Assembly (NCBI RefSeq): GCF_011045215.1
Contig: NZ_CP049201.1
Direction: 5' to 3' (one strand)
DNA from: Escherichia coli
GTDB lineage: Bacteria > Pseudomonadota > Gammaproteobacteria > Enterobacterales > Enterobacteriaceae
Length of the DNA stretch: 64,000 nucleotides
Part shown: piece after piece, positions 22,317 to 43,700 of the stretch
Layout: every line of letters starts with the position of its first letter
Numbering within the stretch: the stretch's first letter is position 1
Translations under genes and position numbers: made by a program
The notes under the pieces: generated by a model
What the model saw: only the letters and a program-made list of their open reading frames with translations
Database searches by the model: none
What the model was told of the DNA's origin: nothing

Positions 22317-22346
22317 ATGCAGGCATAAAAATTGGGGGAGGTGCCT

Positions 22347-24623
22347 ATGCTCAATCAAGAACTGGAACTCAGTTTAAATATGGCTTTCGCCAGAGCGCGC
22401 GAGCACCGTCATGAGTTTATGACCGTCGAGCACTTGTTACTGGCGCTGCTCAGTAACCCATCTGCCCGGGAGGCGCTGGAAGCGTGTTCTGTGGATTTGG
22501 TTGCGCTCCGTCAGGAACTGGAAGCCTTTATTGAACAAACCACACCCGTTCTGCCTGCCAGTGAAGAGGAGCGCGACACACAGCCGACGCTGAGTTTTCA
22601 GCGTGTACTGCAACGTGCGGTCTTCCATGTCCAGTCCTCCGGTCGCAATGAGGTTACCGGTGCAAACGTTCTGGTCGCTATCTTTAGCGAACAGGAGTCG
22701 CAGGCGGCATATCTGTTGCGTAAACATGAAGTCAGCCGTCTCGATGTGGTGAACTTTATCTCTCATGGCACGCGTAAAGACGAGCCGGCACAGTCTTCTG
22801 ATCCTGGCAGCCAGCCAAACAGCGAAGAACAAGCTGGTGGGGAGGAACGTATGGAGAATTTCACGACGAACCTGAATCAGCTTGCGCGCGTGGGCGGAAT
22901 CGACCCACTGATTGGTCGTGAGAAGGAGCTGGAGCGTGCTATTCAGGTTCTCTGCCGTCGCCGTAAAAACAACCCGCTGCTGGTGGGGGAATCTGGTGTC
23001 GGTAAAACCGCGATTGCAGAAGGTCTTGCCTGGCGAATTGTTCAGGGCGATGTGCCGGAAGTGATGGCTGACTGTACGATTTACTCTCTCGATATCGGTT
23101 CTCTGTTAGCGGGCACAAAATATCGCGGCGACTTTGAAAAACGTTTTAAAGCGTTGCTCAAGCAGCTGGAGCAGGACACTAACAGCATCCTGTTTATTGA
23201 TGAGATCCACACCATTATCGGTGCGGGTGCAGCGTCTGGTGGTCAGGTCGATGCGGCTAACCTAATCAAACCGTTGCTCTCCAGCGGTAAAATTCGCGTA
23301 ATTGGTTCGACAACCTATCAGGAGTTCAGCAACATTTTCGAGAAAGACCGTGCTCTGGCGCGTCGCTTCCAGAAAATTGATATTACTGAACCGTCGATCG
23401 AAGAAACTGTTCAAATCATCAATGGCCTGAAACCGAAGTATGAAGCGCACCACGACGTGCGTTATACCGCAAAAGCGGTGCGTGCGGCGGTAGAGCTGGC
23501 GGTGAAATACATTAACGATCGTCATCTGCCGGATAAAGCGATTGATGTTATCGACGAAGCGGGCGCTCGCGCACGCCTGATGCCGGTAAGCAAACGCAAG
23601 AAAACCGTAAATGTGGCGGATATTGAGTCCGTGGTGGCCCGTATTGCACGCATTCCAGAGAAGAGTGTTTCTCAGAGTGACCGCGATACCCTGAAAAACC
23701 TCGGCGATCGCCTGAAAATGCTGGTCTTCGGTCAGGATAAAGCTATTGAGGCGCTGACTGAAGCCATTAAGATGGCGCGTGCAGGTTTAGGTCACGAACA
23801 TAAACCGGTTGGTTCGTTCCTGTTTGCCGGCCCTACCGGGGTCGGGAAAACAGAGGTGACGGTACAGCTTTCGAAAGCTTTGGGCATTGAGCTTCTGCGC
23901 TTTGATATGTCCGAGTATATGGAACGCCATACCGTCAGCCGTCTGATTGGTGCGCCTCCGGGATACGTTGGTTTTGATCAGGGCGGTTTGCTGACTGATG
24001 CGGTCATCAAGCATCCACATGCGGTGCTGCTGCTGGACGAAATCGAGAAAGCGCACCCGGACGTGTTCAATATTCTGTTGCAGGTGATGGACAACGGTAC
24101 GCTGACCGATAACAACGGACGCAAAGCGGACTTCCGTAACGTGGTGCTGGTGATGACCACCAACGCCGGGGTACGTGAAACTGAGCGTAAATCCATTGGT
24201 CTTATCCACCAGGATAACAGCACCGATGCGATGGAAGAGATCAAGAAGATCTTTACACCGGAATTCCGTAACCGTCTCGACAACATTATCTGGTTCGATC
24301 ATCTGTCAACTGACGTGATCCATCAGGTGGTGGATAAATTCATCGTCGAGTTGCAGGTTCAGCTGGATCAGAAAGGTGTTTCTCTGGAAGTGAGCCAGGA
24401 AGCGCGTAACTGGCTGGCCGAGAAAGGTTACGACCGGGCAATGGGCGCACGTCCGATGGCGCGTGTCATCCAGGACAACCTGAAAAAACCGCTTGCCAAC
24501 GAACTGCTGTTTGGTTCGCTGGTGGACGGCGGTCAGGTCACCGTCGCGCTGGATAAAGAGAAAAATGAGCTGACTTACGGATTCCAGAGTGCACAAAAGC
24601 ACAAGGAGGAAGCAGCGCATTAA
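22347..24623 (+). CDS. clpA: ATP-dependent Clp protease ATP-binding subunit ClpA
   Basis: Two AAA+ modules (Walker A GESGVGKT and GPTGVGKT); 758 aa from [11 protein letters not shown]. Confidence 0.92.
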
Positions 24624-24647
24624 TCTGATTGTTAAGTAGGTTGGTGA

Positions 24648-24681
24648 AGTCCGTAATCTCGAAAGAGGTTACGGACTTTTT
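24648..24681 (+). terminator. Rho-independent terminator of clpA
   Basis: Hairpin agtccgtaa / ttacggact followed by TTTTT. Confidence 0.75.
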
Positions 24682-24836
24682 ATTTATGGGGTGGAGGAGG
24701 TTCAGACCCTTTTTTTGATGATGATGGTTAGTTGTTGATAATTAGTCCTGCTGGAAGGTAAGGATAAAAAAGGGTGGCAGCAGGAGAATGAGATGGTTTT
24801 GCTTTATTAACAACGGGCTAAACGTGTAGTATTTGA

Positions 24837-24984
24837 GTTCACTGCCGTACAGGCAGCTTAGAAAAATTGTCGGCGCATTTTCCCATTAGTTGCAAAGTTC
24901 ACTGCCGTACAGGCAGCTTAGAAATTCACAGGTAACATACTCCACCCGCCCACCATGTTCACTGCCGTACAGGTAGATAAAATG
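24837..24984 (+). CRISPR. Orphan type I-F-like CRISPR mini-array (3 repeats, 2 spacers)
   Basis: 28-bp repeat GTTCACTGCCGTACAGGCAGCTTAGAAA at 24837-24864 and 24897-24924; degenerate third copy at 24957-24984; two 32-bp spacers; AT-rich leader-like sequence upstream; no cas genes in window. Confidence 0.85.
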
Positions 24985-25041
24985 CGAAAAAAAAGCTCGT
25001 ACTTTCGTTCGAGCTCTTCTTTAAATATGGCGGTGAGGGGG
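24982..25041. repeat. att-like direct repeat copy 1 (tRNA-Ser 3' end plus terminator)
   Basis: 25028-25046 is the reverse complement of the last 19 nt of tRNA-Ser(GGA), preceded by hairpin plus A-run (a minus-strand terminator); the 60-bp unit recurs at 25161-25220. Confidence 0.7.
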
Positions 25042-25160
25042 GGATTGACTCGCTTCGCTCGCCCTGCGGGCAGCCCACTCACTGCGTTCGTGGTCTGTCC
25101 AACTGGCTGCGCCAGTTGTCGAACCCCGGTCGGGGCTTCTCACCCCCCCTGGAGTGCATT

Positions 25161-25220
25161 ATGCGAAAAAAAAGCTCGCACTTTCGTACGAGCTCTTCTT
25201 TAAATATGGCGGTGAGGGGG
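25161..25220. repeat. att-like direct repeat copy 2 (island left junction)
   Basis: Near-identical to 24982-25041 (2 mismatches); the tRNA-like match is shorter (about 14 nt); lies directly upstream of the integrase gene. Confidence 0.7.
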
Positions 25221-25380
25221 ACCGCCTGAAATAAATCTGACTTAATCCAGGGGTGTTATATAATTTCATTATAAACAATGTATTACACTTTTTGTTGTCC
25301 GATATTATCTAATGTATTCTTAGTGAAGCGAGAGACTAATGGCATACTGGATGGCATACCAGAGTGACGGGAATTAGCGT

Positions 25381-26583
25381 ATGGCAGTATTGACGGATAC
25401 GAAAGCAAGACATATCAAACCTGATGACAAACCATTGCCCCATGGGGGAATTACCGGACTGACCCTTCATCCTTCTTCAGTAAAGGGGCGGGGGAAATGG
25501 GTTTTTCGTTATGTAAGTCCGGTGACACAAAAAAGACGTAATGCTGGATTGGGAACTTACCCAGAGGTCAGTATTGCTGAAGCTGCACGTACTGCCCGGA
25601 TAATGCGAGAGCAACTTGCTGCAGGTGATGATCCTCTGGAGATTAAAAAGGCTGAATCTGAGAAAGTCGTTATCCCAACATTTGCCGATGCAGCCAGGCG
25701 TGTACATGCAGAACTGTCTCCTGGATGGGAAAATCCAAAGCATGTAAGGCAGTGGTTATCGACGCTTGAGAATTACGCGTTTCCTCAACTGGGAGCAAAA
25801 ACGCTGGATTCGATTACGGCTGCGGACGTGGCAGAAACATTGCGTCCAGTCTGGTTAACCTTGTCAGAAACGGCAAGCCGGGTTAAACAGCGCATTCATG
25901 TTGTTATGCAGTGGGGATGGGCGCACGGTTTTTGTGTGGCAAATCCTGTTGATGTGGTTGACCATTTGCTTCCTCAGCAGACAAGAGGACGTGATGAACA
26001 CCAACCCGCAATGCCCTGGAGGCAGTTACCGCTTTTTGTGGCGACCAGTGTGTATAGTGATGAACCTTATAATGTTACCCGCGCACTGTTATTAATGGTG
26101 ATACTTACAGCAACTCGCTCGGGCGAAGCCAGGGGAATGCGCTGGGCTGAAATTGATTTTCATAAGCGGGTATGGACTATACCTGCAGAAAGAATGAAAG
26201 CTAGGCTACAGCATCGTGTTCCTTTATCCCGGCAGGCTATTTACATTCTGGAAAATATACGTGGCCTGCATGATGAACTGGTGTTCCCTTCACCCAGAAA
26301 GCAGCAGATCCTTTCCGATATGGTGTTGACAAGTTTTCTGCGTAAAAAGAAAGCCGTCAGTGACATTCCGGGGCGAGTTGCCACGGCACATGGTTTTCGC
26401 TCAACATTCAGGGACTGGTGTAGTGAACAGGGGTATTCGCGGGATCTGGCGGAAAGGGCGCTCGCTCATACGCTGAAAAATAAGGTTGAGGCGGCATATC
26501 ATCGCACTGATCTACTGGAGCAGCGTGTACCGATGATGCAGGCATGGGCGGATTATGTGATGTCTCAAATTGTGAATAAATAA
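25381..26583 (+). CDS. Tyrosine recombinase, P4-type integrase family
   Basis: 400-aa ORF; N-terminal arm-binding-like region and C-terminal catalytic region (AHGFRSTFRDW...LAH...Y); adjacent to att repeat. Confidence 0.85.
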   Translation: MAVLTDTKARHIKPDDKPLPHGGITGLTLHPSSVKGRGKWVFRYVSPVTQKRRNAGLGTYPEVSIAEAARTARIMREQLAAGDDPLEIKKAESEKVVIPTFADAARRVHAELSPGWENPKHVRQWLSTLENYAFPQLGAKTLDSITAADVAETLRPVWLTLSETASRVKQRIHVVMQWGWAHGFCVANPVDVVDHLLPQQTRGRDEHQPAMPWRQLPLFVATSVYSDEPYNVTRALLLMVILTATRSGEARGMRWAEIDFHKRVWTIPAERMKARLQHRVPLSRQAIYILENIRGLHDELVFPSPRKQQILSDMVLTSFLRKKKAVSDIPGRVATAHGFRSTFRDWCSEQGYSRDLAERALAHTLKNKVEAAYHRTDLLEQRVPMMQAWADYVMSQIVNK

Positions 26584-28755: not shown

Positions 28756-29477
28756 GTGATATTCTATTGGTATCTGGAGACCATATGGCAACAGTTACAG
28801 TACATTCTCCCCGCTGTAATTCCTATAAAGTGTACCATTATGATCACAGCACCTCAGATCATGAGCGTTTCCAGTGCTAATCCTGCAAATGTGTGTATTT
28901 CAACTGAATTACATCTACGAAACCCGAAAACCAGGCATCAAAGAGCAAATTGTTGAAATGGTTCATAACGGAGTCGGGTTCGCGATAGCTCCAGAACGCT
29001 GAAGGTGGATATCAACACCGTCATTCTCACTTTATAAAACGCTCACCACGCAAAGTAACCACATCTCCAGACGTCAGTGCCGATGTGGCGCTTATCTGCG
29101 AACTTGATGAACAATGGAGTTTTGTCGAAAACAAAGCTCGTCAGCAGTGGCACTGGTATGCGTATAACACCAAATCTGGAGGTGTGCTGGCTTACACTTT
29201 TGGTCCTCGCACTGATGAAACATGTCGTGAGTTGCCGGAACTCCTGAAGCCATTCTCCACAGGCATGATAACCAGAGACAACCGGAGCAGTTATACCAGA
29301 GAAATGCCACAGGATAAGCATCTTGTCGGCAAGATATTTACCCGGCGCATTGAGCGCAACAATCTGACACTTCGTACTCACATCAAACGACCAGCCCGGA
29401 AAACGATTTGCTTTTCACGCTCCCTGGAAATTCACGAAAAGCCATTGGTTCATTTATCGAAAACACTGTACTACTGA
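28756..29477 (+). pseudogene. Degenerate IS1-family element remnant (InsA/InsB-like, frameshifted)
   Basis: 29085-29477 translation ALICELDEQW...YTFGPRT...QRIERNNLTLRTH matches the InsB pattern; InsA-like pieces upstream broken by stops. Confidence 0.6.
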
Positions 29478-29700
29478 CTGGAGTCATTACCAGGGCCTCT
29501 TTTGCTGTTTTTTTACCAATGAATGATAATGAGAATCGACAGTGATAAGGAGAAAGTAAAATAACAATAATGCTGTTGTTTTCTATCGTATTGATTTTTA
29601 ATTATTTATTGTCTTTTTGCTCAGCCCATTTTTTTACGCAGACAAATTTACCCGGGGAATACAAACTGTAACGACAGTTCACCACACTATGGGGGATAAA

Positions 29701-29997
29701 ATGCCAGATCAATCCGGATACTGCTGGACTCCTTCACGCATCTTACGGATGCCTGAACTGAGCCAATTGTTAGGTATATCTCGTTCGACAATTTACGAAA
29801 AAATGAATCCGTTATCGAAATACTACGATGCAACCTTCCCCAGGCCGGTACGTCTTGGTAGTGGTTCTGTGGGCTGGCGTTCATCAGCTATTGACGAATG
29901 GCTTACTTTACATACTGTACCTGCCAGATCAGCAGTCAAAGGTGTTAATGACGAAGTGCGACATACGCTTTCTTCAGATATGACCATGAGCAGATAA
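29701..29997 (+). CDS. AlpA-family transcriptional regulator / excisionase-like
   Basis: HTH segment LSQLLGISRSTIYEKM...FPRPVRLGSGSVGWRSSAIDEWL; SD-like ggggga before ATG at 29701. Confidence 0.65.
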   Translation: MPDQSGYCWTPSRILRMPELSQLLGISRSTIYEKMNPLSKYYDATFPRPVRLGSGSVGWRSSAIDEWLTLHTVPARSAVKGVNDEVRHTLSSDMTMSR

Positions 29998-30170
29998 GTT
30001 TTTGTCATCACGTGATCACCTCAGGAGGAAAAAGAAGCATAAGAACAATTTAGCCAGAAGTTTAATTGATAAACAGAATTTCCAGCATTCATTGTTGAAA
30101 GAGCAGCTATTGTCGCTATTGTAGCGGTAATTGCTGCTATAACCGAAACGTATTACGAAAAAGGAAGCAT

Positions 30171-30421
30171 TTATGTCTTACATCAAACCGGATATGCCGT
30201 ATTCAGTATATACGTGACCATCAATGATAGGGAAGGCAATAATTAAAGCTCAATACAATAAACAAGTACCTCTGACTCTGGTTGCAATGTCAGTATTAAC
30301 AGCGATGTCAATTGCCTGTCAGAATCAGGTTGACGTATGCAGCCCCGGAAATTTACGTGGGGCCGTTAATATTTACACTATGGTTCTGGAGAAAGGGAAA
30401 AGACCGGGGGAAAGGTATTAG
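30171..30421 (+). pseudogene. Truncated, frameshifted duplicate of the N-terminus of the downstream DUF3987-like gene
   Basis: 30224-30421 translation ...VAMSVLTAMSIACQNQVDVCSPGNL parallels VATSALTAISIACQNQIDVCRPGNL of the 30640 gene; upstream leader also duplicated. Confidence 0.45.
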
Positions 30422-30639
30422 TGAAATAATTTCTGGAGGTATTAAGAATGAGAAATATGAATGATATTTCGTGGTAAATAATACAGTCTGCACTGAATTA
30501 ACCTTATCGGTTTATTAAACATCAGATCTACAAATGCTCAGTATTTCTCAGAGCATCAGGTCTGAATAGCAGCTATTTTCGCTATTGTAGCGGGAGTTGC
30601 TGCTATTTTACTAACCCATTAATGAAAAGAGAGGCTTTT

Positions 30640-32073
30640 ATGTGCTTACTTGCACCAGAAAATCCTTATCCGATATATGCACTACCACCGCTGGTGAGAA
30701 ATGCAATAATTGAAACTCAAAAAAATACACAGGCACCTTTGGCTATGGTGGCAACATCCGCATTAACAGCGATCTCAATTGCCTGTCAGAATCAGATTGA
30801 CGTGTGCAGACCTGGAAATTTACATGGGCCTGTTAATCTTTACTCTCTGATTCTGGCTGATTCCGGTGAAAGGAAAACGACCGTGGATAAAGTGTTTATG
30901 AAAGCATTTTATCTCAGGGATGAAGCCCTGGCGGAAGAATACGCGAAACTGGTTGAGAATTACAGTACAGAAAAGGAAATATGGGAGCAAAAACAAAAAG
31001 CGCTGGAATCAAAATTTCATAAAGAGATTCGTGCCGGTAAAGATTACAAGGCAACAGAATCAGAGCTTGAAACGCATCTGAATAAATCTCCTGTTCCGCC
31101 GCAGATACGTCGAACAATTTTTAATGAGACAACGATAGAGGGAATGTTAAAATATTACTCTGATAGCAATCGCTCTTTTGCTCTTGTATCCAGTGAAGGG
31201 GGGGTAATTTTTGACAGCCGGGCCATGAGTAAACTGGGAATTATTAACACTTTGTGGGATGGAGGTTCTCTTTTCATCGACAGGAAATCATCTCCCGGAA
31301 TTAATTTGAAGGAGCCAAGACTGACGATATCGGTGATGATTCAGCCTGATGTTTACCACAAAGGTTTTTGTACGCGAAAAAAAGAACTTGTGAAAACGTC
31401 AGGACATCATGCAAGGTTTTTGATGTGTCAACCAACATCAACGCAGGGGACAAGGATAATAACCGGAGATAATTATTCATCACAGTATCAGGATTTGTTT
31501 GAAGAGAGGATCAATGAGCTTATTGATGAAAGTCTGGCGATGAGTGGTGAACGACGTTGCCTTCACTTTTCTCCTCAGGCTGCCAGAATCTGGACGGATT
31601 ATTACAATGATGTGGAATCGAAGCTGGGGGGATTGGGGCCTTTAAGACATTGCCGGGAATATGCTGCTAAAAATGCAGAGTATATGGCAAGACTGGCAGG
31701 ACTTATTTACCATTCGAGCGGTGAAGAGGGGGAGATTTCCCCTTACACTGCAGAAATGGCGAGAGAATTAGCAATATGGTACGGTAATGAGTATGTGCGG
31801 TTGTCTAATCCGTTAACTTTTGACAACTCCGCCCTGACCGTACCTGTGCGACTCATTCCAGAGGAGCTTGAACTTTTCAACTGGATAAAAAGCTATTGCA
31901 TTGAGAAGGGGATCCTCTGTATGAAAAAAAATGACATTTTACAGCGTGGCCCGAACCGTTTCCGGAAAAAGGATAAAATCAACTGGTTACTGGATTTACT
32001 GTATGAACAAAACAGAGTTGTACCGGTTATTGAGGGAAAAACGTTGTGTGTCGCACCTAACTTTGACCTCTGA
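30640..32073 (+). CDS. DUF3987-like (YfjI-like) island protein
   Basis: About 478-aa ORF; assignment from recalled similarity to prophage YfjI-type proteins; SD agagagg before ATG at 30640. Confidence 0.5.
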   Translation: MCLLAPENPYPIYALPPLVRNAIIETQKNTQAPLAMVATSALTAISIACQNQIDVCRPGNLHGPVNLYSLILADSGERKTTVDKVFMKAFYLRDEALAEEYAKLVENYSTEKEIWEQKQKALESKFHKEIRAGKDYKATESELETHLNKSPVPPQIRRTIFNETTIEGMLKYYSDSNRSFALVSSEGGVIFDSRAMSKLGIINTLWDGGSLFIDRKSSPGINLKEPRLTISVMIQPDVYHKGFCTRKKELVKTSGHHARFLMCQPTSTQGTRIITGDNYSSQYQDLFEERINELIDESLAMSGERRCLHFSPQAARIWTDYYNDVESKLGGLGPLRHCREYAAKNAEYMARLAGLIYHSSGEEGEISPYTAEMARELAIWYGNEYVRLSNPLTFDNSALTVPVRLIPEELELFNWIKSYCIEKGILCMKKNDILQRGPNRFRKKDKINWLLDLLYEQNRVVPVIEGKTLCVAPNFDL

Positions 32074-32334
32074 ACGACTTAATCGTTGAGTACATATAGT
32101 CTCCTCTGCTACTTGCGGAGGAGACTAATGTCTTTACCATGTCAGCGTTGTATTAGAAAACTCTGGTACAGGTCAGTCAGTAAATATAACTGGTGTAACC
32201 ACTATTTACTATTGGATAGAGTGTTGCTCAGGATATTGTCGGCTTTAGTCTGAGGTGAGGTGGGGCCTTCATTGTTTTCGTGTTCAATAAATAATTTAGG
32301 TTAATTAGTATTATTAGTGGGAGTTATGTGATCT

Positions 32335-32702
32335 GTTATGTTGTCTCTTTTATCGTAATGTCACTCCTCTCTATGCTAAGTATTCTGTATGTGTGTAATA
32401 CATATATCTCCATACACTACGCAGTGAAGCATATGGGGGGAAGCTGTATGGTGAATTATGTGGTGTAATGTTGGGAACATAAATCTGTTATGTTATGTTG
32501 TCTTGTACGCACTTAACACTGGTTACGTACCGGAACACTATTAGAGTATGTTATGGCTCCGTTACAGTTTATAAGCATAGGTAAATATAATATTTTCTGT
32601 ATGAAATAATCTTCTTATTGTGAGGTTAAATATCTGTAGGCTCTCTCTGCAGAGTCTCTGTTTTTACTTAATGGTACGGCAATATTAATAGCGATGTTGT
32701 CT
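32335..32702. repeat. Iteron-like short direct repeats in AT-rich non-coding region
   Basis: GTTATGTTGTCT at 32335-32346 and 32504-32515, related ATGTTGTCT at 32694-32702, within a 0.9-kb gene-free AT-rich stretch upstream of a Rep-like gene. Confidence 0.4.
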
Positions 32703-33011
32703 GTGGCTACCCGGTACTGACTTTTGTGAAGATCAGATTATATCCTGTAAGTAATTGAATGGTGCTTTCTTAAACTCAATTATATGAGGTGTGTTTTTTA
32801 TTGTAATTCGTTCTGGTCCTCAGTTTAAGAAAGTCTTACTGTATTCTGAATCATTACCCTATTACTGTAATGAGGTAATACGAAACAGTTTTATCAGGTT
32901 GTCTGTGCTGCTGGTTACCTCTTTTATTAATGCCGCGGTACGGCGTTTCTGTACTCTCAGTATTTATGTAATTCCACTTTCCTGTCAGTTTTATAAAGTA
33001 AGGACTATAAA

Positions 33012-33575
33012 ATGTATAATGCCAATCCCAATTACGAAATGAATTTCGCGATTCTGAAAGATGTGAATGAACACATGGAAGGTCTGTTTCAACGTTTTTC
33101 TAAACTGTTACCTTTCAGAATTGATTTTGCTTACAGGAAAGACACGCCCAGTTTTGGTCTTTCCTGTAAGCACAGTATGTGTATGGAAATGTACCGCTTA
33201 CTTAGCGAAACCCAGACGATGTTGGCGGGATATTACTGGGTAATGGAATATACACCAGACAAAGGGCTTCATATTCATTTTATCGGCTATCTGGATGGAC
33301 AACGTCACAAGAACTCTTATCAGATATCCAGGCAACTGGGAGATATCTGGAGGCGGATCACGGAAGGGGAGGGTTATTTTCACCTGTGCCGGGCTAAAGA
33401 TAAATACCCGGTGCGTATCGATCATGTAATTCACTATAGTGATAAATCTGCGGTAGACGACTTACGTTACGCCCTTAGCTATCTGGCGAAACAGGATCAG
33501 AAAGAACACGGTATTATTCTGGGGCGTAGCAGGCTTCCCGAAAAAAGTAACCGCGGCCGACCACGACATAACTGA
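33012..33575 (+). CDS. HUH-motif Rep-like protein (YagK/YfjJ, inovirus Gp2-like family), paralog A
   Basis: 187-aa ORF with His-hydrophobic-His motif (GLHIHFIGY) and downstream Tyr-containing region. Confidence 0.55.
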   Translation: MYNANPNYEMNFAILKDVNEHMEGLFQRFSKLLPFRIDFAYRKDTPSFGLSCKHSMCMEMYRLLSETQTMLAGYYWVMEYTPDKGLHIHFIGYLDGQRHKNSYQISRQLGDIWRRITEGEGYFHLCRAKDKYPVRIDHVIHYSDKSAVDDLRYALSYLAKQDQKEHGIILGRSRLPEKSNRGRPRHN

Positions 33576-33669
33576 ATTATGGGGGCTTATGTCCGAACTA
33601 TCGTAAGTTATCGCGTGGATTTGCCTTCACACGAATTTCAGTCGTGGTGCCGCCGGGAGACAGGTACAA

Positions 33670-34033
33670 GTGATAACGCATATGGTTTATAAATCTGACA
33701 GCGATGAACTAGCAGTACTGCGGGCAGAAAATACCCGGCTGGTCTCATTACTTGAAGCTCATGGGATTGAATGGCGACGTAAACCGCAGAGCCCTGTGCA
33801 GTGCGTTTTCGTATTATCCACGGATGAGAAAGTTGCGTTATTTTGTCGACTGTTTCGCGGGCGTGATGATGTATGGGCCCTTCGATGGGAAAGCAAAACC
33901 AGCGGAAAGGGTATTCGTCTACCTGGCTAACGAATGGCTGTTGGGAATATGCAGTAAGCCCTGGATAAAATGTGGGGACTGCGCTCACCGTCAGTTGATC
34001 CCTGTATCTGATCTCATCATCTACCAGAGGTAG
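33670..34033 (+). pseudogene. 5' remnant of a larger gene (coiled-coil plus Cys-rich segment), frameshifted
   Basis: 33670-33930 encodes ...ALFCRLFRGRDDVWALRWESKTSGKG; an overlapping frame continues ...ANEWLLGICSKPWIKCGDCAHRQLIP before a stop; no downstream body. Confidence 0.3.
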
Positions 34034-34147
34034 TGTACAATATGCCGATATCGAACTGATACTTAATTAAAATATCTAGAGTGTGATATATCTCTGAGAA
34101 CTATCAATACGAATATTAAAAATACTTCCAGAATAACAGCAATACGG

Positions 34148-34651
34148 GTGGATCTCCATTACCCTCCTGTGATTGACAACGGGGATACCATTACCTGTTT
34201 TCCTAACCTGACCCCCGGAGAAATATCTCGTTTCCGTAACTCGCTGAATGCGAAAATTAATGCAGATCAACACCGTAAAAAACAACAAGGCAAACGCACC
34301 TACGCAACGTCGGTTTGTATTATCTGGGCGAAAGAATATACGCAGTCCTTTAAATGTCATTATCACGTCTGCCTGTTGTTTAACAAAGACGCCTATTACC
34401 ACCTGGGAGACTATGAGCGCTCTGACACCCTGAGAGGGTTAATTACCGGAGCCTGGTACAGTGCCTTAGGGTTGGAACTGGAAGATCACCAGGGATTAGT
34501 TCATTTCCCTACTAATGGGCGTTACATCCTGGATATTAACGATCCTGATTTCCCTGAGCAGTACCAGCGCTTATTGGTACGTCTGGATTATTTGACGAAG
34601 CTCGACACTAAAGCATCAGGCCAGCGTAACTTTGGCTACAGCGGTTTTTGA
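34148..34651 (+). CDS. HUH-motif Rep-like protein, paralog B (start uncertain, GTG at 34148)
   Basis: His-hydrophobic-His motif CHYHVCLLF aligning with paralog A; upstream in-frame sequence still resembles the A N-terminus, so the gene may be 5'-truncated. Confidence 0.5.
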   Translation: MDLHYPPVIDNGDTITCFPNLTPGEISRFRNSLNAKINADQHRKKQQGKRTYATSVCIIWAKEYTQSFKCHYHVCLLFNKDAYYHLGDYERSDTLRGLITGAWYSALGLELEDHQGLVHFPTNGRYILDINDPDFPEQYQRLLVRLDYLTKLDTKASGQRNFGYSGF

Positions 34652-34941
34652 CCTATTGTAACTATAAGGTGATTTATTATGTATATAGAATCTTACCAGA
34701 AAAAATACTTTTCCTTGTGATTTGGTACTGAGTTAACATTTAGTACAGTATTAGGGCCTTCATTGTCAGGCCCTGCTTTGCAATTTTTCAAAGCTCCAGG
34801 TAAGCTTTTTTCCGATAAACATGCTGATATCAAACACCGCTTCTTTACCAGCACTATCAAAAATAATTCTGATATTTGGTTTTTATCTCCTTGTCTATAG
34901 ATTCGTCACCAATACTGTAGCTTGTATCATTACTTCCTCAA

Positions 34942-35715
34942 TTAAGTGGTTAAAGCTCTAATGCTAAAAGAATGCAATATTGGTAGAGAGTTTTTTGAGC
35001 ACCATGACAGATTTTCTTTACTCAGTATTTCATCAATAACAGACTTAGCAAATGGAATGGTGAGCAAGAATGAAGCTTTTTTATCTTTATTTGGAACTAT
35101 GCGGTTACCACCATTTACCCAATGTGCTTCAAGTCTGACATTTAGATCTTGCCATTTTACACCTTTTCGAACACGTTCTTTTTTTAATGAATAGAAAAAA
35201 GTTGATTTACCATTTGGTGTCGGGTGGTTATCCATTAACATTAGCATAAGAGGGATTCCCCAGTCAGGCATATAGCTATAATGCCAGATCCCAAAACTAT
35301 CCGCGATCCTGACCATCCGAATGAATGATTTTTGATCAAGCTTCCCTTCACCTCCCCTTAATGCTCTACAAACAACCCAGGCCCGATAGAGGTTATCAAA
35401 TTGCATGAATTGATTTCGGCGAGATACTGCAATTTCTGCTGAAGCAGAGCGTTCATTACCTGAAAAACCAGAAAAACGTTGAGATCTTGCGCTTAGGGGA
35501 CAGAACTCTTTATTTTCTGGTGAAGCGGAATGAGAGAATCTGGGGCTATAATCAGGATTGGGAGTGACTAATCCGCTATCATGGACAGGTTTCTCGCATG
35601 AGATACAACGTAATGGTGGGTAGTCATCTCGTGATATACCCTTAACTTTTTGTGCATATGCATCAATACTGATTTCAATCCAATAACCTTTTTCCAGAAC
35701 TTCAGCTTTATTCAT
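34942..35715 (-). CDS. Hypothetical 257-aa protein
   Basis: Uninterrupted ORF with AT-rich upstream region; no recognised domain. Confidence 0.45.
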   Translation of the reverse strand: MNKAEVLEKGYWIEISIDAYAQKVKGISRDDYPPLRCISCEKPVHDSGLVTPNPDYSPRFSHSASPENKEFCPLSARSQRFSGFSGNERSASAEIAVSRRNQFMQFDNLYRAWVVCRALRGGEGKLDQKSFIRMVRIADSFGIWHYSYMPDWGIPLMLMLMDNHPTPNGKSTFFYSLKKERVRKGVKWQDLNVRLEAHWVNGGNRIVPNKDKKASFLLTIPFAKSVIDEILSKENLSWCSKNSLPILHSFSIRALTT

Positions 35716-36022
35716 AATGTGTTGCCTCTGATATTGTTCATGTGATTATTGATAATAATAGATTACAGATAAAAAAGAAGAAATATGTATTTAAATCTTG
35801 TATTACAATGTATATATACAATTCAATCAAAAATTAGTGTTTTTAATCTCATGGCATAATCAGAAAACAGCAGAACGGGGTATTTGTTTTAATGGCGCCT
35901 CGATAAAAATTGAGATAACAGTTGCAGTTTAAAACACCTCTATTTCGTGGTTCTGAATATAGAGGCTTTACGATTTATTAAAATATTACTAAAATATGTT
36001 CATATTCCGATGCACAGACCTT

Positions 36023-36418
36023 TCACTTCTGCTTTTTCTCATTTTTGTCAGTTGTAGACTCAGTTTTTTTACGTTTTAACTTTAATATCATCTTTCCATT
36101 GCTAAATTCAATTTCTTCGTAATCGCGGAAAACAGTAATAACCAGAGCAATACCAATGGATGCTGCAGCAATAATAACAGCGATATCAAGTCCGGATAAT
36201 GCAGCTAAAGAACTAACAGCTAAAACAGAACCTCCACCAGTGAGTGGAATAGTAGCACAAGTTGCGATCATGGCAGCAATAACAACACCACTTACTTTTG
36301 TTACAGCCTTTGCTTTTTTAATTTTATTTGCTAACTCTCCTTCAATAATTATAATTTCAGCTCTGCTGTTTTGAGCTTTTTCGAGTTCATCCTTCGATCT
36401 TACAGTAAATTCAGCCAT
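36023..36418 (-). CDS. Hypothetical small membrane protein (131 aa)
   Basis: Central long hydrophobic segment with charged N- and Lys-rich C-termini; hairpin cctctat...atagagg downstream. Confidence 0.45.
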   Translation of the reverse strand: MAEFTVRSKDELEKAQNSRAEIIIIEGELANKIKKAKAVTKVSGVVIAAMIATCATIPLTGGGSVLAVSSLAALSGLDIAVIIAAASIGIALVITVFRDYEEIEFSNGKMILKLKRKKTESTTDKNEKKQK

Positions 36419-36677
36419 AATTATCCTGGTCTTGTAACATTTATGCCATCTTAAGTACTTTTATTTAGAGCGTTAACACGCTCCGCAGTCTATTAAACGC
36501 AACCGCAATAAAAATTAATGTATTTTACCAATCGTAGTCAACTAAAAGTTTCTTAATACCCTGAACGCTACATCCCATACTTCTACTACGATTTGAGCAA
36601 CATTTTGGTATTGACACTGCAGTTTTCCCAATGAAATATGGGCTTATTCAGCTTTTATTGTTTCCTGAATCTATATT

Positions 36678-38456: not shown

Positions 38457-40196
38457 TTGACTGGAAAATTATGTTGCAGGAACGAGAGGGCTGAGGAACA
38501 AAGCGTATTCCGGCGCTGTCCGTCCTTGCTGTCACTGACACTGATGTCTGTTTTATTATCGCCTTTATCTCTTCAGGCCGCGGATGTCCGGCGTAGCGGA
38601 GATAATGCATTTATCATTCAGCAGCAGCGTCAGGAAGCCCTTGAGCAACAACTGACGCCTTCAGCCCCTGATGTTCGCCTTTCTGCACCTGGCTCTTTTG
38701 CCCGTAAGATTAATTTTCCTGTTGAAACGCCCTGTTTTCAGATTAAACAGACGGAACTGGAGGGGGCTGATGCGTTACCACACTGGCTGCCTTTACAAAA
38801 AATCGCCAACGGGGCGGTCGGGCATTGCCTGGGGGCGAAAGGAATTAATCTGCTGATGAGTACATTGCAGAACCGTCTGGTCGATCATGGTTATGTCACC
38901 ACCCGTGTTCTGGCACCTTCGCAGGATTTAAAAAGCGGTATCCTCCGGCTGGTTGTTATTCCCGGTGTTGTGCGACATGTGCGTCTGACACCGGACAGTG
39001 ATGACTATATTCAGTTGTATTCCTCATTCCCGGCACACGAAGGTTCTCTGCTGGATTTACGGGACATTGAGCAGGGGCTGGAGAATATGCAACGACTGCC
39101 GGGTGTGCAGGCTGATATGGAAATTGTACCCGGTGAGCAGCCAGGGGAAAGTGACATTCTTATTACCCGCAAACAGGACAAATACTGGCGACTGGGGTTT
39201 TCGCTTGATGATTCAGGTACCCGCAGCACAGGGCGTTATCTCGGTGGTATAACATTTTCTCTGGATAATCCTTTTTCCCTGAGTGACCTGCTGTATGTTT
39301 CTGCCACCCGTAATTTTCCACATTACGGGGGTAAGGGCAGTAAAAACTACACGGCCCATTACTCTGTGCCTTTCGGCTACTGGCAGTTTTCCGTCACCGC
39401 CAGTGATTACGATTACCATCAGACGGTAGCTGGTGCGGTTGAGGATTACCAGTACAGTGGCGAGAGTCAGAATCTGGGTATGCAGCTGAGCCGGGTACTG
39501 CACCGTAACGGGACGCAGAAAACGGTGCTGACCTACGATGTTCAGGCCCGCAGGTCGCGTAACTACATTAATGATACGGAAATCCAGGTGCAGCGCCGGC
39601 AGACAGCGGCCTGGCGACTTGGGCTGCAGCACCGTCATTATATTTCTCAGGCCACACTGGATGCTGGTGTCAGCTGGCAACGGGGAACCCGCTGGTTTGG
39701 TGCACAGCCGGCGCCGGAAGAAACGTTCGGTGAGGCAACGGCGCTCAGTAAGATCCTGCAGTTGAATGCATCCTTTAATCTGCCCTTTACCCTTGCAGGG
39801 CAGCCCTTCAGTTATTCCTTCCGGTATCAGCGCCAGCTGAGCAATACCCCGCTGACCCCACAGGAACAGTTTGCCATCGGTAACCGCTGGACGGTTCGTG
39901 GTTTTGACGGGGAGCGAACGCTGAATGCCAGTAACGGCTGGTATATCCGCAACGACCTGGCCTGGCGTACGCCACTGCCGGAGCAGGAGTTATATCTGGG
40001 AATGGATTACGGCGAGGTGGGGGGAGCCGGCAGTGAATACCTGGTGGGACGTCATCTGGCTGGTGGTGTTGTGGGGCTGAGGGGGCAACTGTTCAGTACG
40101 GATTATGACGTTTTCATCGGTCGTCCGTTTTCAAAGCCGGCGGGTTTTATGACGAGTGATGTGACAGCCGGTTTTAATCTGTTCCGGGATTTCTGA
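38457..40196 (+). CDS. cdiB: Two-partner secretion outer-membrane transporter CdiB (TpsB family); start uncertain (TTG at 38457)
   Basis: Signal peptide ending [13 protein letters not shown]-like N-region, C-terminal beta-barrel ending in aromatic residue; directly upstream of cdiC-cdiA. Confidence 0.85.
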
Positions 40197-40205
40197 GAAA
40201 GTTTC

Positions 40206-40733
40206 ATGCGTAACGGGAAATATGACGTTCTGAGTCCCCTGTATTCCGGTGAGCCGGTCAATGAGGCGGAAGTCCTGGGGGCGGCCGTCTGGTTGTGGAT
40301 GCACTCCCCCCTGCATCGTGATGCGCCACTGCATACCCTGCCGGACCTGCTGCTGCCGGTGATTAAGCACCGACAGTATGTGGTGGCAACAGAGCAGGGG
40401 CGACCGGTTTTCTTCATGAGCCAGGCCTGGCTCAGCCCGGAGGCAGAGGCGCGTTATCTTACGCAGCCGGCAATTCTCATGCCTCAGTCGGACTGGAACA
40501 GCGGCGACCGGATGTGGGTCTGTGACTGGATTGCCCCTTTTGGACATACCCCGGATATGAGTCGTCTTGTCCGGCAGGATATTTTTCCCCGTCTGTGCTG
40601 GCGTTCGCTGTACCACCGTGGGCAGCAGACCGGGTTGCGGGTGATGAATTTCCGGGGTGCACAGGTCAGTCGTGAAGAGGCGCGCCAGTGGCGTGTGCAG
40701 CACCCGCTTGCTGTGGATGTGCCGGAGAGATAA
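40206..40733 (+). CDS. cdiC: HlyC/RTX-family toxin-activating lysine acyltransferase (CdiC-like)
   Basis: Motifs WLWMHSPLHRD and GDRMWVCDWIAPFG closely parallel HlyC (WLWASSPLHRN, GDRKWFIDWIAPFG); 175 aa. Confidence 0.8.
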   Translation: MRNGKYDVLSPLYSGEPVNEAEVLGAAVWLWMHSPLHRDAPLHTLPDLLLPVIKHRQYVVATEQGRPVFFMSQAWLSPEAEARYLTQPAILMPQSDWNSGDRMWVCDWIAPFGHTPDMSRLVRQDIFPRLCWRSLYHRGQQTGLRVMNFRGAQVSREEARQWRVQHPLAVDVPER

Positions 40734-40748
40734 GTCAGGTTTATCAGA

Positions 40749-43700
40749 ATGAACAAAAATTGTTACCGCATTATTTTTAACAAAGCCCGGGGAATGCTGA
40801 TGGTGGTGGCAGATATTGCCCGTTCCGGTCGCGCCGGTGCATCACCCTCCTCCCGTACAGGATATCCACGCAGGCAACGTATCTGCCGTGTCACATCGCT
40901 TGCATTCTCCCTGTGGCTGGCCTCGGGGATGGTGCATTCTGTCAGTGCTGCAGGCATTGTCGCAGACCATGGCGCACCGGGGCATCAGCAGCCCACGATT
41001 ACGCAGACAGCCAGCGGCATTCCTCAGGTCAATATCCAGACACCTTCTGCAGGTGGGGTATCGCACAATACTTACAGTCAGTTTGATGTCAGTCATCAGG
41101 GTGTCATTCTGAATAACTCGCATAAAAATGTGCAGACCCAACTGGGCGGCATGGTTGCCGGTAACCCGTGGCTGGCGAAGGGAGAGGCCCGAATCATTCT
41201 TAATGAAGTGAACAGTCGCAATCCCAGCCAGTTGAACGGTTTTGTTGAGGTTGCCGGGAAAAAGGCGCAGGTGGTGATTGCGAACCCGGCCGGCATCAGT
41301 TGCGACGGGTGCGGTTTTATTAATGCGAACCGGGCCACGCTGACCACGGGGCAGCCTCAGATGAAAAACGGCAGTCTGACCGGATTCAGTGTTGAACGTG
41401 GTGAGATTCAGATTACGGGCAAAGGGATGGATGCCTCGCGCACGGATTATACCGATATCATTGCCCGGTCTGTGAAGATTAATGCGGGTATCTGGGCGCA
41501 GGACCTGAAAGTGACCACCGGACGTAACAATGTGGATATTGCACACGGGCAGACTGAGAAAAAAGCCGCTGATGCCTCTTCGCAGCCACAGGTGGCGCTG
41601 GATGTGTCCAGCCTTGGTGGAATGTATGCCGGAAAAATTCGCCTTGTCGGTACGGAAACGGGGGTGGGTGTTCGTAACGCCGGTCATATTGGTGCGCAGG
41701 CAGGGGCGGTTACCCTGACGGCTGACGGACGAATTGAAAACAGTGGCAGTATCAGTGCGAAAACGGATGTGCATCTGGTGACAACCCGGGAGCTGCATAA
41801 CAGTGGTTCTGTTTATGCGGGGCAGGATACGCAGATACAGAGTGATGGTGTATTCACCCATACAGGCTCTGTGGCATCACGTCGCAACACCCGGATTCAG
41901 ACAGCGCGTCTGACCGGCGGTGAGCGGAGTCTGCTGGCCGCCGGGGTGAAAGATGACGGACGTCTGGCGGCAGCGGGCAACCTGACTGTCAGTACCACCG
42001 GCGAACTGGCGGCACACGGACAGGTTCTGTCCGGTGGGGACATGCAACTGAAGGGGCAGGGGCTGGATTTAAGCAACAGCCGGATACAGGGACAACATAC
42101 TGAGCTGGATGCAGGCAGCGGAAATCTGTTCACGCAAAATGCGCAACTGAGTGCCGGTACGCTTTCCGCCCGGACTGCCGGGCAGTTCAGCAATAATGAC
42201 GGCACGATAAATGCCGACACACTGCAGATATCAGCACAGAGCCTGTCAAACCACAGGGGTAAACTGATTCAGACGGGAACAGGGGATTTTTCACTGAACC
42301 TGCCGGGAGGTGTGGATAACCGGGAAGGGCTGCTTGCGGCAAATGGCGCGGTGCGCCTGGATGCACTGAGCCTTGATAATCGCAGGGGGAAAGTGCAGGC
42401 GGCGCAGTCAGGTAGTCTGCAGGTGAGGACAACCGGCGCCGTGGATAACCAGCAGGGAAGTCTGATTGCCAGCCGTGACATCCTGATTAATACACAGGCA
42501 CTGAATAACGACAACGGACTGATTTCAGCTGCTGCCGGAACGGGCAGGATAAAAACACAGCAGGCTGTCAGCAATACTGAGGGACGAATGGAGTCCGCCG
42601 GCAGGCTGGATATTTCGGCAGGGAGTCTGAATAACCACCAGGGTACGGTGGTGTCTGACGGGCTGTCCGTGACGCTGGATGGTGCGCTGGATAATACGTC
42701 CGGCAGACTGCTTTCACAGAAAACGCTGTCTGTGTCAGGCAGCGAACTGGTCTCTGATGATGGTCTGATTCAGTCCGGCAGTGACATGACGCTGGATGTA
42801 CAGGACGGGGTTCTCAGTAACCGGAACACGAAAACACGGGGTGGTATCAGCAGCGCCGGTACCCTGACAGTACGGGCCGGTATGCTGAATAACCAGCAGG
42901 GATTTATGGCGGGTCAGAAGGATATGACCCTGAACGCCGGAACGCTCGATAACCGTCAGGGCGTGCTGGGGAGTCAGGCGTCATTACAGATATCGTCAGG
43001 TACGCTGATGAACCAGAAAGGCGCACTGAAGGCCGGGACGGATATGTTGCTGAGTGGTGGCGATGTCAGTAATCAGGAAGGGACGCTTGCCGCCGGCGGG
43101 GACCTGAATGCGCACCTGAATGTGCTGGAAAATCAGCAGGGGACGGTGGTCAGCAACGGTAACAGCAGGCTGGATGTCACCCGCTCTGATAATCAGGGCG
43201 GCAGACTGGTGGCACAGCAGTCACTGACCCTTTCCTCGACGGATATCAGCAATGATGCAGGTGGTCTGATACAGAGCGGTGCCACACTGAATCTCCGTGC
43301 TGACACACTGAGCAACCGTAACAGTGGTGACCGGGGCGGGGTTATCAGTCAGGGCCCGATGACGCTGAATGCCGGCACACTGGACAGCACTGCCGGTGTG
43401 CTTTTGTCGGGAGATGCGCTGTCCCTGACTGCAGGCGTGGTTAACAATACATCCGGTCAGGTGGTGGCGAATGGTCAGATTGTGGCGACCGGTCTGCCCG
43501 GCCGGAACAGTCTGGCGCTGAACAATCAGTCCGGTCTTATTCAGGGGAAAGGCATCAGCATTAATAGCGCAGGCCGGACGCTGGATAACAGAGGGGGTAC
43601 GCTGAACAGCCTGCAGGAACTGACTGTCAGTACCGGAGCAATGGATAACCGGGGCGGGACCGTGGGGGCGAAAACGACAGCTGACCTGAGCACCACCTCG

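Follow-up and report, generated by a model that had tools for sequence, protein, structure and literature searches.

A predicted HUH-type protein at the backbone edge of a CP4-57-like island in Escherichia coli, preceded by a conserved AT-rich box and not by conserved iterons

What do two Rep-like genes and almost a kilobase of AT-rich non-coding DNA do inside an Escherichia coli island, and does this DNA hold an origin on which the encoded proteins could act? The question is raised by a locus on contig NZ_CP049201.1 (assembly GCF_011045215.1), of which we analysed one stretch of 64,000 nucleotides (the window, to which all positions refer). An earlier interpretation of this DNA, here called the sequence-only reading, had described two paralogous open reading frames (ORF1 and ORF2) with motifs of rolling-circle initiators, a gene remnant between them and, upstream, three copies of a short motif that could be iterons or an origin. 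Comparison with related loci shows that the stretch is the boundary of conserved backbone and variable cargo in a CP4-57-like integrative island. ORF1 is intact and belongs, within the YagK/YfjJ family, to the 'inovirus-type Gp2' branch; its product has a single HUH/Y1 domain (HUH, histidine-hydrophobic-histidine) and an AT-hook, while the gene remnant and ORF2 are decay products. The sequence conserved ahead of ORF1 in other genera is a 22-nt box; the repeats are lineage-specific. We weigh below a reading in which ORF1 is a backbone nickase of the excised island, to which we give a probability of about 0.45, against its rivals.

Gene order places ORF1 in the island backbone. The backbone consists, in this order, of an integrase gene, alpA, the gene of a YfjI helicase, a long spacer and ORF1. 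From yfjI onward the order is yfjI, a 938-nt unannotated spacer, ORF1, a gene stump and ORF2, which ends at 34651. The Prokaryotic Genome Annotation Pipeline (PGAP) gives the same order in E. coli chromosomal DNA that is 96% identical, where the names used include 'YfjI family protein', 'YagK/YfjJ domain-containing protein' and 'inovirus Gp2 family protein', and 2,414 of 5,426 complete E. coli genomes carry similar DNA; the locus is thus common and already named by standard annotation. A natural carrier is Nissle 1917, where the island stands at about 3,113,800-3,118,300 of CP058217.1. The gene 3' of ORF1 varies by island (a PrimPol-helicase, a KAP NTPase, an enterotoxin, a group II intron, or zinc-ribbon proteins with McrB), which makes ORF1 the edge of the backbone and the PrimPol-helicase a cargo gene. 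Of 39 loci from other genera, 35 have alpA behind the ORF1 homologue, within about 100 nt (at +670 to +730), and it is on this basis that we regard ORF1 as a backbone gene. A two-gene defence or replication module made of ORF1 and the PrimPol-helicase was considered and rejected, because the next gene changes from island to island and is alpA in other genera.

ORF1 (33012-33575, + strand) is intact and encodes 187 residues with the motif LHIHFIGY and the C-terminal AT-hook RGRPR. Its own profile scores are weak (PF23343 REP_ORF2-G2P, E 0.0033; PF11726, E 0.049, below the Pfam threshold). Among 27 aligned members of its family, which ranges over Escherichia, Salmonella, Citrobacter, Erwinia, Yersinia and other Enterobacterales, 23 match PF23343 at E <= 0.001 (best 1.4e-8) and 10 match PF11726 at the same threshold; one matches Rep_1 at 2.6e-4 and one matches Phage_GPA weakly. 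The alignment spans identities of 35-97%, and the residues that are invariant or at least 90% conserved in it are R36 and D38 (RIDF), E79 (WVxE), H87, H89, Y157 and K160. Within SYLAK no member departs from A159 or K160, and the conservation of Y157 is at least 90%. The C-terminus NRGRPRHN has an invariant R181, followed by G182, R183, P184 and R185 at 90% conservation or more; RGRPR is the canonical AT-hook core, so that DNA binding by ORF1 can be predicted.

The predicted structure points the same way. In the AlphaFold (AF2) model (pLDDT 90) the HxH lies on a beta strand (85-95) and the tyrosine of Y-x-x-K on a helix (145-159) that is C-terminal to the HUH motif, the arrangement expected of an HUH enzyme. 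The top match of this model in a Foldseek search of the PDB is the parvovirus B19 NS1 nuclease (E 7e-4), followed by Rep proteins of adeno-associated virus (AAV), a circovirus and a vientovirus, with TM-scores of about 0.3 and sequence identities of 9-16%. Among HUH enzymes the nucleases of parvovirus NS1, AAV Rep and the CRESS-DNA virus Reps thus appear to be the nearest structural relatives of the modelled protein. The order and spacing of Glu, HxH and Tyr in ORF1 resemble those of what we take to be the corresponding residues of AAV Rep. Searches of NCBIfam and PADLOC gave no match for ORF1 or ORF2, and a sequence search of the PDB returned noise only. Among 11 Escherichia loci ORF1 has no indels and is 92-98% identical, whereas the spacer ahead of it is 72-97% identical with many indels and evolves faster; we conclude from this difference that ORF1 is under purifying selection. 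The description of both proteins as Rep-like is borne out by family profiles (PF11726 at 8e-50 for ORF2, PF23343 for most ORF1 relatives), by motif conservation and, for ORF1, by what the predicted fold resembles, and both His-hydrophobic-His motifs are present (LHIHFIGY in ORF1, CHYHVCLLF in ORF2). The HUH reading is right, then, if not new, and nicking by these proteins is a prediction.

The 22-nt box, AATTTAGGTTAATTAGTATTAT, lies on the + strand at 32293-32314, with weak conservation on to 32320. Its consensus is AATT(A/T)AGGTTAATTA(G/A)TATTAT, local identity at the box is 0.95, and the window has a single occurrence where 0.05 would be expected. It is the only part of the spacer or upstream sequence that is conserved outside Escherichia: the box is found on the same strand 5' of the ORF1 homologue in most of the 39 loci from other genera, including Citrobacter, Erwinia, Yersinia, Serratia, Buttiauxella and others in Enterobacterales, while control regions gave 5-11 mismatches at best. 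Clade-specific variants are AAGGTTAATTGGTATTATAG and TTGGGTTTTTAGTATAATTA. In most genera the box lies 105-270 nt ahead of the start codon; in Escherichia the distance is about 700 nt, and in Limnobaculum and Budvicia it is about 1 kb. More loosely related AGGT/AT-rich boxes are found ahead of yfjJ, of yagK (where the box falls within a reported RpoD promoter, see below) and of an intact gene of the ORF2 type. The box is most likely a promoter -10 element with an overlapping operator, serving ORF1 here and an ORF1-alpA operon in other genera. Since ORF1 carries an AT-hook, the box is also our best guess for a recognition site of the protein, and it is thus a candidate promoter -10/operator, a candidate HUH-protein site, or both.

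On this evidence we propose that ORF1 is a backbone HUH nickase which acts on the excised island and is expressed from, and perhaps recognises, the conserved box. Excision driven by AlpA would produce an island circle. ORF1, expressed from the -10 element and operator of the box (together with alpA where the two form an operon), would probably be a site-specific DNA-nicking and joining enzyme, whose HxH-bound metal and Tyr157 would cut the DNA of the island itself. The nick might then prime rolling-circle replication, or hand the circle over to a transfer or packaging machine.

Several observations weigh against this proposal. The DNA folding of six orthologous box sites gave no shared hairpin (z-scores -2.2 to +0.5). 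The box resembles a promoter element and may be unconnected with nicking. A simple scan found no sigma-70-type promoter on the + strand here. A role in an autonomous replicon is without precedent, because the family is never the sole Rep of small plasmids and is essentially absent from phage records and IMG/VR: its plasmid matches are to large replicons only, a search of phage DNA gave no match, tblastn against 50,697 phage records gave only two distant matches in phage proteins, and IMG/VR yielded only two contigs with the family. The metagenomic contig L068 (2497-3063) carries an intact ORF2-type gene followed by a PF11726 paralog in which the HxH is replaced (PYLMV), and suggests that tandem arrays contain non-catalytic members. 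In the literature found under the family names, YagK/YfjJ-type genes appear in lists or as uncharacterised and no assay is reported; a published list still counts YfjJ and YagK among the uncharacterised proteins (PMC11551758).

Some of these observations also speak for the main rival of the nickase reading, namely that ORF1 has been domesticated as a DNA-binding regulator, or is some other factor that does not nick, that the box is only its promoter and operator, and that no rolling-circle or transfer step exists. The box holds a -10-like TATTAT or TATAAT and lies 105-270 nt ahead of the start in most genera. The analogous AGGT/AT-rich box of K-12 yagK lies within the spacer and -10 of a reported RpoD promoter (TTTAGA-16-TATAAT), in a region bound by H-NS according to genomic SELEX (systematic evolution of ligands by exponential enrichment; PMC3946193). 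The AT-hook alone could confer binding to AT-rich DNA, the family never serves as Rep of a stand-alone replicon, and the HxH is lost in some paralogs, the one on L068 among them. What this explanation does not readily accommodate is the near-invariance of E79, H87, H89, Y157 and K160 in so divergent a family, which is hard to explain without catalysis, and the matches of family members to profiles of rolling-circle replication initiators. We consider a purely regulatory ORF1 unlikely, if less so than the explanations that follow, all of which assign the function to the spacer.

The spacer (32074-33011) measures 938 nt at about 37% G+C and has no feature annotated in 1,586 E. coli genomes, in agreement with the roughly 0.9 kb of AT-rich non-coding DNA noted before. 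It contains a terminator-like hairpin with a T run (32633-32670, + strand), which is deleted in the related locus L003, and ends in the proximal leader of ORF1 (32674-33011, + strand), which closes with the ribosome-binding site AAGGA. This proximal leader is conserved in Escherichia specifically, with a mean pairwise identity of 0.76-0.96, and was not found outside the genus. The fast-evolving leader that the spacer forms is probably silenced by H-NS. Could the spacer be a long regulatory leader or a non-coding RNA, whose transcription starts near the box and is attenuated at the internal hairpin, so that ORF1 expression is gated? The long distance from box to ATG in Escherichia, Limnobaculum and Budvicia would suit such a leader, as would the hairpin and the conservation of the proximal 340 nt within Escherichia. 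The structural evidence is against it: RNAalifold on 13 Escherichia sequences found compensatory change in 0 of the 73 predicted pairs of the proximal leader, and an Rfam search over 29000-36500 gave no credible family, its sole match being a plant microRNA (E 0.19) upstream of yfjI and outside the spacer. Moreover, the middle of the leader is rich in indels, the hairpin is deleted in L003, and outside Escherichia the leader is not conserved. An attenuating leader is therefore an improbable explanation of the locus. A known or structured RNA in the spacer found no support on the same grounds, and the antitermination by AlpA of Pseudomonas aeruginosa was rejected as a model for the leader, since the AlpA of that species is another kind of protein, Q-like and with a GGGACG site. 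Nor is the spacer a decayed gene or the home of a hidden small reading frame as far as blastx against the reading frames of related loci can tell, which returned only homologous non-coding DNA in shifting frames; the lengths of the spacer indels are not multiples of three.

A further explanation takes the spacer to be an island origin served by the YfjI helicase, as in the satellites of the Staphylococcus aureus pathogenicity island (SaPI) and phage-inducible chromosomal island (PICI) type, with ORF1 incidental to it. In those satellites iterons stand on either side of an AT-rich stretch 3' of the replicase gene. The spacer indeed follows the helicase gene directly, is AT-rich, and holds direct repeats slightly above chance. 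From about 32272 on, however, it travels with ORF1 and not with yfjI, and is found with ORF1 even beside an unrelated 611-aa reading frame with the DUF3987 gene on the other strand, while in K-12 CP4-57 only 153 nt separate yfjI from yfjJ. It is because of this co-travel and this short gap that we argue against a YfjI-served origin. The repeats are irregular besides, and their two exact copies are not conserved; we regard such an origin as quite improbable.

The repeats themselves carried the proposal of iterons in the sequence-only reading. Of the three motif copies counted there, two are exact occurrences of GTTATGTTGTCT (32335-32346 and 32492-32503, both + strand), and the third is partial: ATGTTGTCT at 32691-32707 (+ strand) matches 9 of the 12 bases of GTTATGTTGTCT at 32694 and shares the 10-mer GTTGTCTGTG with a second copy at 32898-32907 (+ strand) in the conserved proximal leader, where GTTGTCT occurs for the fourth time. 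Both exact copies are replaced by other sequence in L003 and in two more related loci (L004 and L005), relatives having GAATGTATGTCTGG at the position of the second, and both fall where the spacer is richest in change, with indels and a mean pairwise identity of 0.47-0.80, the lowest along its length; the copies at 32694 and 32898 are conserved in relatives. Spacing is irregular (157, 202 and 204 nt). The longest exact repeat of the spacer, 13 nt, was reached in 18 of 1000 shuffles (p about 0.02) and the four TTGTCT in 14 of 1000 (p about 0.014), and over the whole window GTTATGTTGTCT with 2 mismatches gave 8 matches where 4.7 were expected, no significant excess. The set of at least three regular and conserved direct repeats that marks an iteron-type origin is thus absent. 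Other genera have no lineage-specific repeat array beside their ORF1 homologues, and iterons of each lineage's own are not supported either: an unbiased test of repeated 8-mers in 44 loci turned up hardly anything except the TCCTGTAA cluster of Escherichia, itself at p about 0.07. Absence of the repeats from related elements had been named in advance as the outcome that would speak against iterons, and for the two exact copies it is what we see in related islands. We thus take the GTTATGTTGTCT repeats for sequence specific to the lineage, within a leader that evolves fast, and not for conserved iterons or an origin of that type. A functional origin in which GTTATGTTGTCT iterons are bound by two Rep paralogs has in its favour two exact 12-mers and partial copies on one strand 5' of a Rep-like gene, but it is largely refuted by the comparative data and very improbable, given that the exact copies are missing from related islands, window-wide counts do not exceed chance, ORF2 is truncated, and comparable arrays are lacking in other genera.

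Closer to ORF1 lies a different group of sites. Four TCCTGTNAG sites at 32743 (+), 32980 (+), 33130 (-) and 33162 (+) fall within 32743-33170, around the ORF1 start, so that 4 of the 5 matches in the window are gathered in 430 nt, with 1.2 expected in 64 kb for a pattern chosen post hoc; in the unbiased 8-mer test the cluster reached p about 0.07. Their positions are homologous among Escherichia loci. Together, the sites at 33130 and 33162 make up a perfect 16-bp inverted repeat (33128-33143 and 33157-33172, with a 13-nt spacer) in codons 39-54 of ORF1. In Escherichia relatives this palindrome is mostly imperfect, with 12-15 of the 16 pairs. Some changes there create pairs and others disrupt them; one outer pair is restored twice, by independent substitutions, of which one costs a K-to-R change. 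It is absent in other genera. A nick hairpin common to the family was accordingly rejected as an explanation of the palindrome.

ORF2 belongs to the other branch, the YagK/YfjJ family proper (PF11726 YagK_YfjJ_C, E 8.3e-50, model positions 13-170; PF23343, E 0.0018), and is 40-58% identical to K-12 YfjJ and YagK. Following the PGAP style of its relatives it spans 34085-34651 (+ strand), and from its first GTG 34148-34651. It has no ATG, its first canonical start being this GTG at 34148, and there is an in-frame stop at 34064; its alignment to YagK has a 10-residue gap, and relatives that are 93% identical have 204 residues and another, intact N-terminus, with DNA homology that starts only near 34123. 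For these reasons ORF2 is probably a 5'-truncated copy, without its native start and some 30 residues of the N-terminus, a truncation that the sequence-only reading missed. The relation of ORF2 to ORF1 had been called paralogous. By BLASTP the two show no recognisable similarity (E 0.17), and profile-profile alignment of the two families by hhalign gives a probability of 89.7% and E 1.9e-6 over 159 columns, with the motif pairs RIDF/RVDL, WVxEYT/WAKEYT, HxH and YLAK/YLTK in register; D-Y-L/M-T-K of ORF2, YfjJ and YagK likewise falls on SYLAK of ORF1. Distant homology therefore stands, while 'two paralogs' overstated the case for an intact gene and a truncated copy. Genes of the ORF1 and ORF2 types, and thus both HUH branches, are sometimes found together in one island.

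The frameshifted remnant reported between the two genes is real, and can be identified as the 5' relic of a PrimPol-helicase gene (33684-34028, + strand). It aligns to the first ~345 nt of an intact gene of 786 aa, from which it differs by a 4-nt and a 1-nt indel, and the homology breaks off at 34028. The product of the intact homologue has an AEP-TOTE domain (PF22548; 7.9e-99) together with ResIII and Helicase_C, the parts of an SF2 helicase. The window holds only those ~345 nt with two frameshifts, short of the intact AEP and helicase domains of an AEP-TOTE PrimPol-helicase, and PGAP calls the relic a pseudogene in relatives. It is variable cargo and not part of a replication module. Intact copies stand as single-gene cargo beside ORF1 homologues in L002 (5731-8091) and L004 (5547-7907); they match the PADLOC 'CRISPR-associated PrimPol' model at 1.4e-144, as well as helicase models, and may be an uncharacterised defence candidate.

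How does the locus compare with known systems? The closest are K-12 YfjJ (CP4-57) and YagK (CP4-6), whose family PF11726 was formerly DUF3296/Inovirus_Gp2. ORF2 is a direct member that lacks, unlike the intact YagK and YfjJ, the N-terminal ~30 residues. In the backbone ORF1 takes the place that yfjJ has in CP4-57, behind alpA-yfjI, and it is homologous to YfjJ at profile level; all of these proteins have RxDxxY, WxxEYT, HxH and YLxK motifs in common. In contrast to YfjJ and YagK, ORF1 belongs to a separate 'inovirus-type Gp2' branch, which carries the AT-hook RGRPR at the C-terminus and has an upstream box of its own.

More remote are the gpII initiators of filamentous phages and the ORF2 initiators of plectroviruses, represented by PF23343, which most ORF1-family members match across the HUH region. 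In Ff phages an intergenic region precedes gene II, and the ORF1 gene similarly follows non-coding DNA in which one site is conserved. Unlike in gpII, however, the similarity of ORF1 is remote and the proteins of its family are half the size of gpII; unlike in filamentous phages, no phage structural genes are near ORF1 and no origin hairpins are seen at the box, and tblastn against the phage records gave no inovirus match for the ORF1 family.

The chemistry predicted for ORF1, an HUH motif with a catalytic tyrosine, is that of superfamily-I rolling-circle initiators (Rep_1, PF01446, of pC194 and pUB110, and gpA of phiX174 and P2). No plasmid or phage uses the ORF1 family as its only Rep, in contrast to these initiators, and the ORF1-type box has AAGGTTAATTAGTATTAT and not CTTGATA. 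The box upstream of K-12 yfjJ does contain CTTGATA, presumably the nick-site core of pC194 and phiX174, which we treat as a lead only. The box of ORF1 contains TAGTATTAT, one base off what we take to be the circovirus nonamer TAGTATTAC. Unlike the origins of CRESS-DNA viruses and geminiviruses it has no flanking stem-loop to present a nonanucleotide in a loop, and a CRESS-like stem-loop origin at the box was rejected, since the sites share no hairpin. With SaPI and PICI satellite origins the locus has in common an AT-rich, repeat-containing spacer immediately 3' of a helicase gene, inside an island with int and alpA; it differs from them in that the spacer co-travels with ORF1 instead of the helicase and in that the repeats are neither regular nor conserved.

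The island itself stands out as a low-G+C segment at about 25.4-37 kb of the window (32-46% G+C, against 52-58% in the flanks), just downstream of clpA. Its tyrosine integrase gene (int, 25381-26583) lies ~750 nt 3' of clpA (region 22332-26583). ARAGORN finds no tRNA or tmRNA gene in the window, and the attachment site here is therefore not an intact tRNA gene. The integrase gene is followed by a 605-aa reading frame on the minus strand, by a frameshifted IS1 transposase relic (~28870-29500), which is also annotated in related islands, and by the AlpA-type helix-turn-helix gene alpA, ahead of yfjI. A 65-aa reading frame just 5' of yfjI (30224-30421) repeats an N-terminal part of YfjI (residues ~27-85) and looks like a partial duplication; in relatives it is annotated as a small 'DUF3987 domain-containing protein' or a pseudogene. 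The yfjI-type DUF3987 helicase gene (30622-32073, + strand) is named 'YfjI family protein' by PGAP in relatives. Its product matches PHROG phrog_2373 'DNA helicase' at E 8e-63 and has no match in NCBIfam or PADLOC. A 13-bp stem-loop just 3' of it (32097-32127, + strand) is terminator-like, with a weak T run.

On the far side of ORF2 a hairpin AGGGCCT...AGGCCCT (34753-34774) separates ORF2 from a convergent reading frame (34942-35715, minus strand). Its left arm and loop (34754-34766) recur at 32263-32275 as an exact 13-nt direct repeat, GGGCCTTCATTGT, and the two copies bracket the segment from ORF1 to ORF2. The first copy lies where homology with the ORF1-linked spacers of other islands begins. 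The pair could be a recombination scar or chance, with a rough expectation of about 0.06. In the high-G+C block beside the island, a reading frame of 3,106 aa (38457-50069) has a filamentous-haemagglutinin N-terminal domain and repeats, like CdiA or two-partner-secretion proteins, and is preceded by one of 579 aa.

For this window the outcome is mostly a clean-up: a common, partly decayed island backbone that is already named, with proposed iterons that are not conserved. ORF1 and ORF2 are a further instance of a known, uncharacterised protein family whose nicking activity is predicted. What the family may mean reaches further, since genes of the YagK/YfjJ type occur in thousands of enterobacterial islands, the K-12 elements CP4-6 and CP4-57 included, and still belong to the E. 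coli 'y-ome'. It is possible, if doubtful at present, that the ~22-nt box and the HUH proteins with an AT-hook, those of the 'inovirus-type Gp2' branch, form a cis/trans nicking module, that is, an origin of replication or of transfer (ori/oriT), of a very large class of enterobacterial int-alpA islands. Such a reading would cover the CP4-type 'cryptic prophages', and Escherichia may have gained extra lineage-specific sites in the TCCTGTNAG cluster and the 16-bp palindrome. If it is true, islands that were supposed to be inert gain a step of rolling-circle replication or mobilisation after excision. The conserved box and the catalytic tyrosine offer precise targets for testing the nickase idea, and active nickases of this family would explain how islands are amplified or moved after excision triggered by AlpA.

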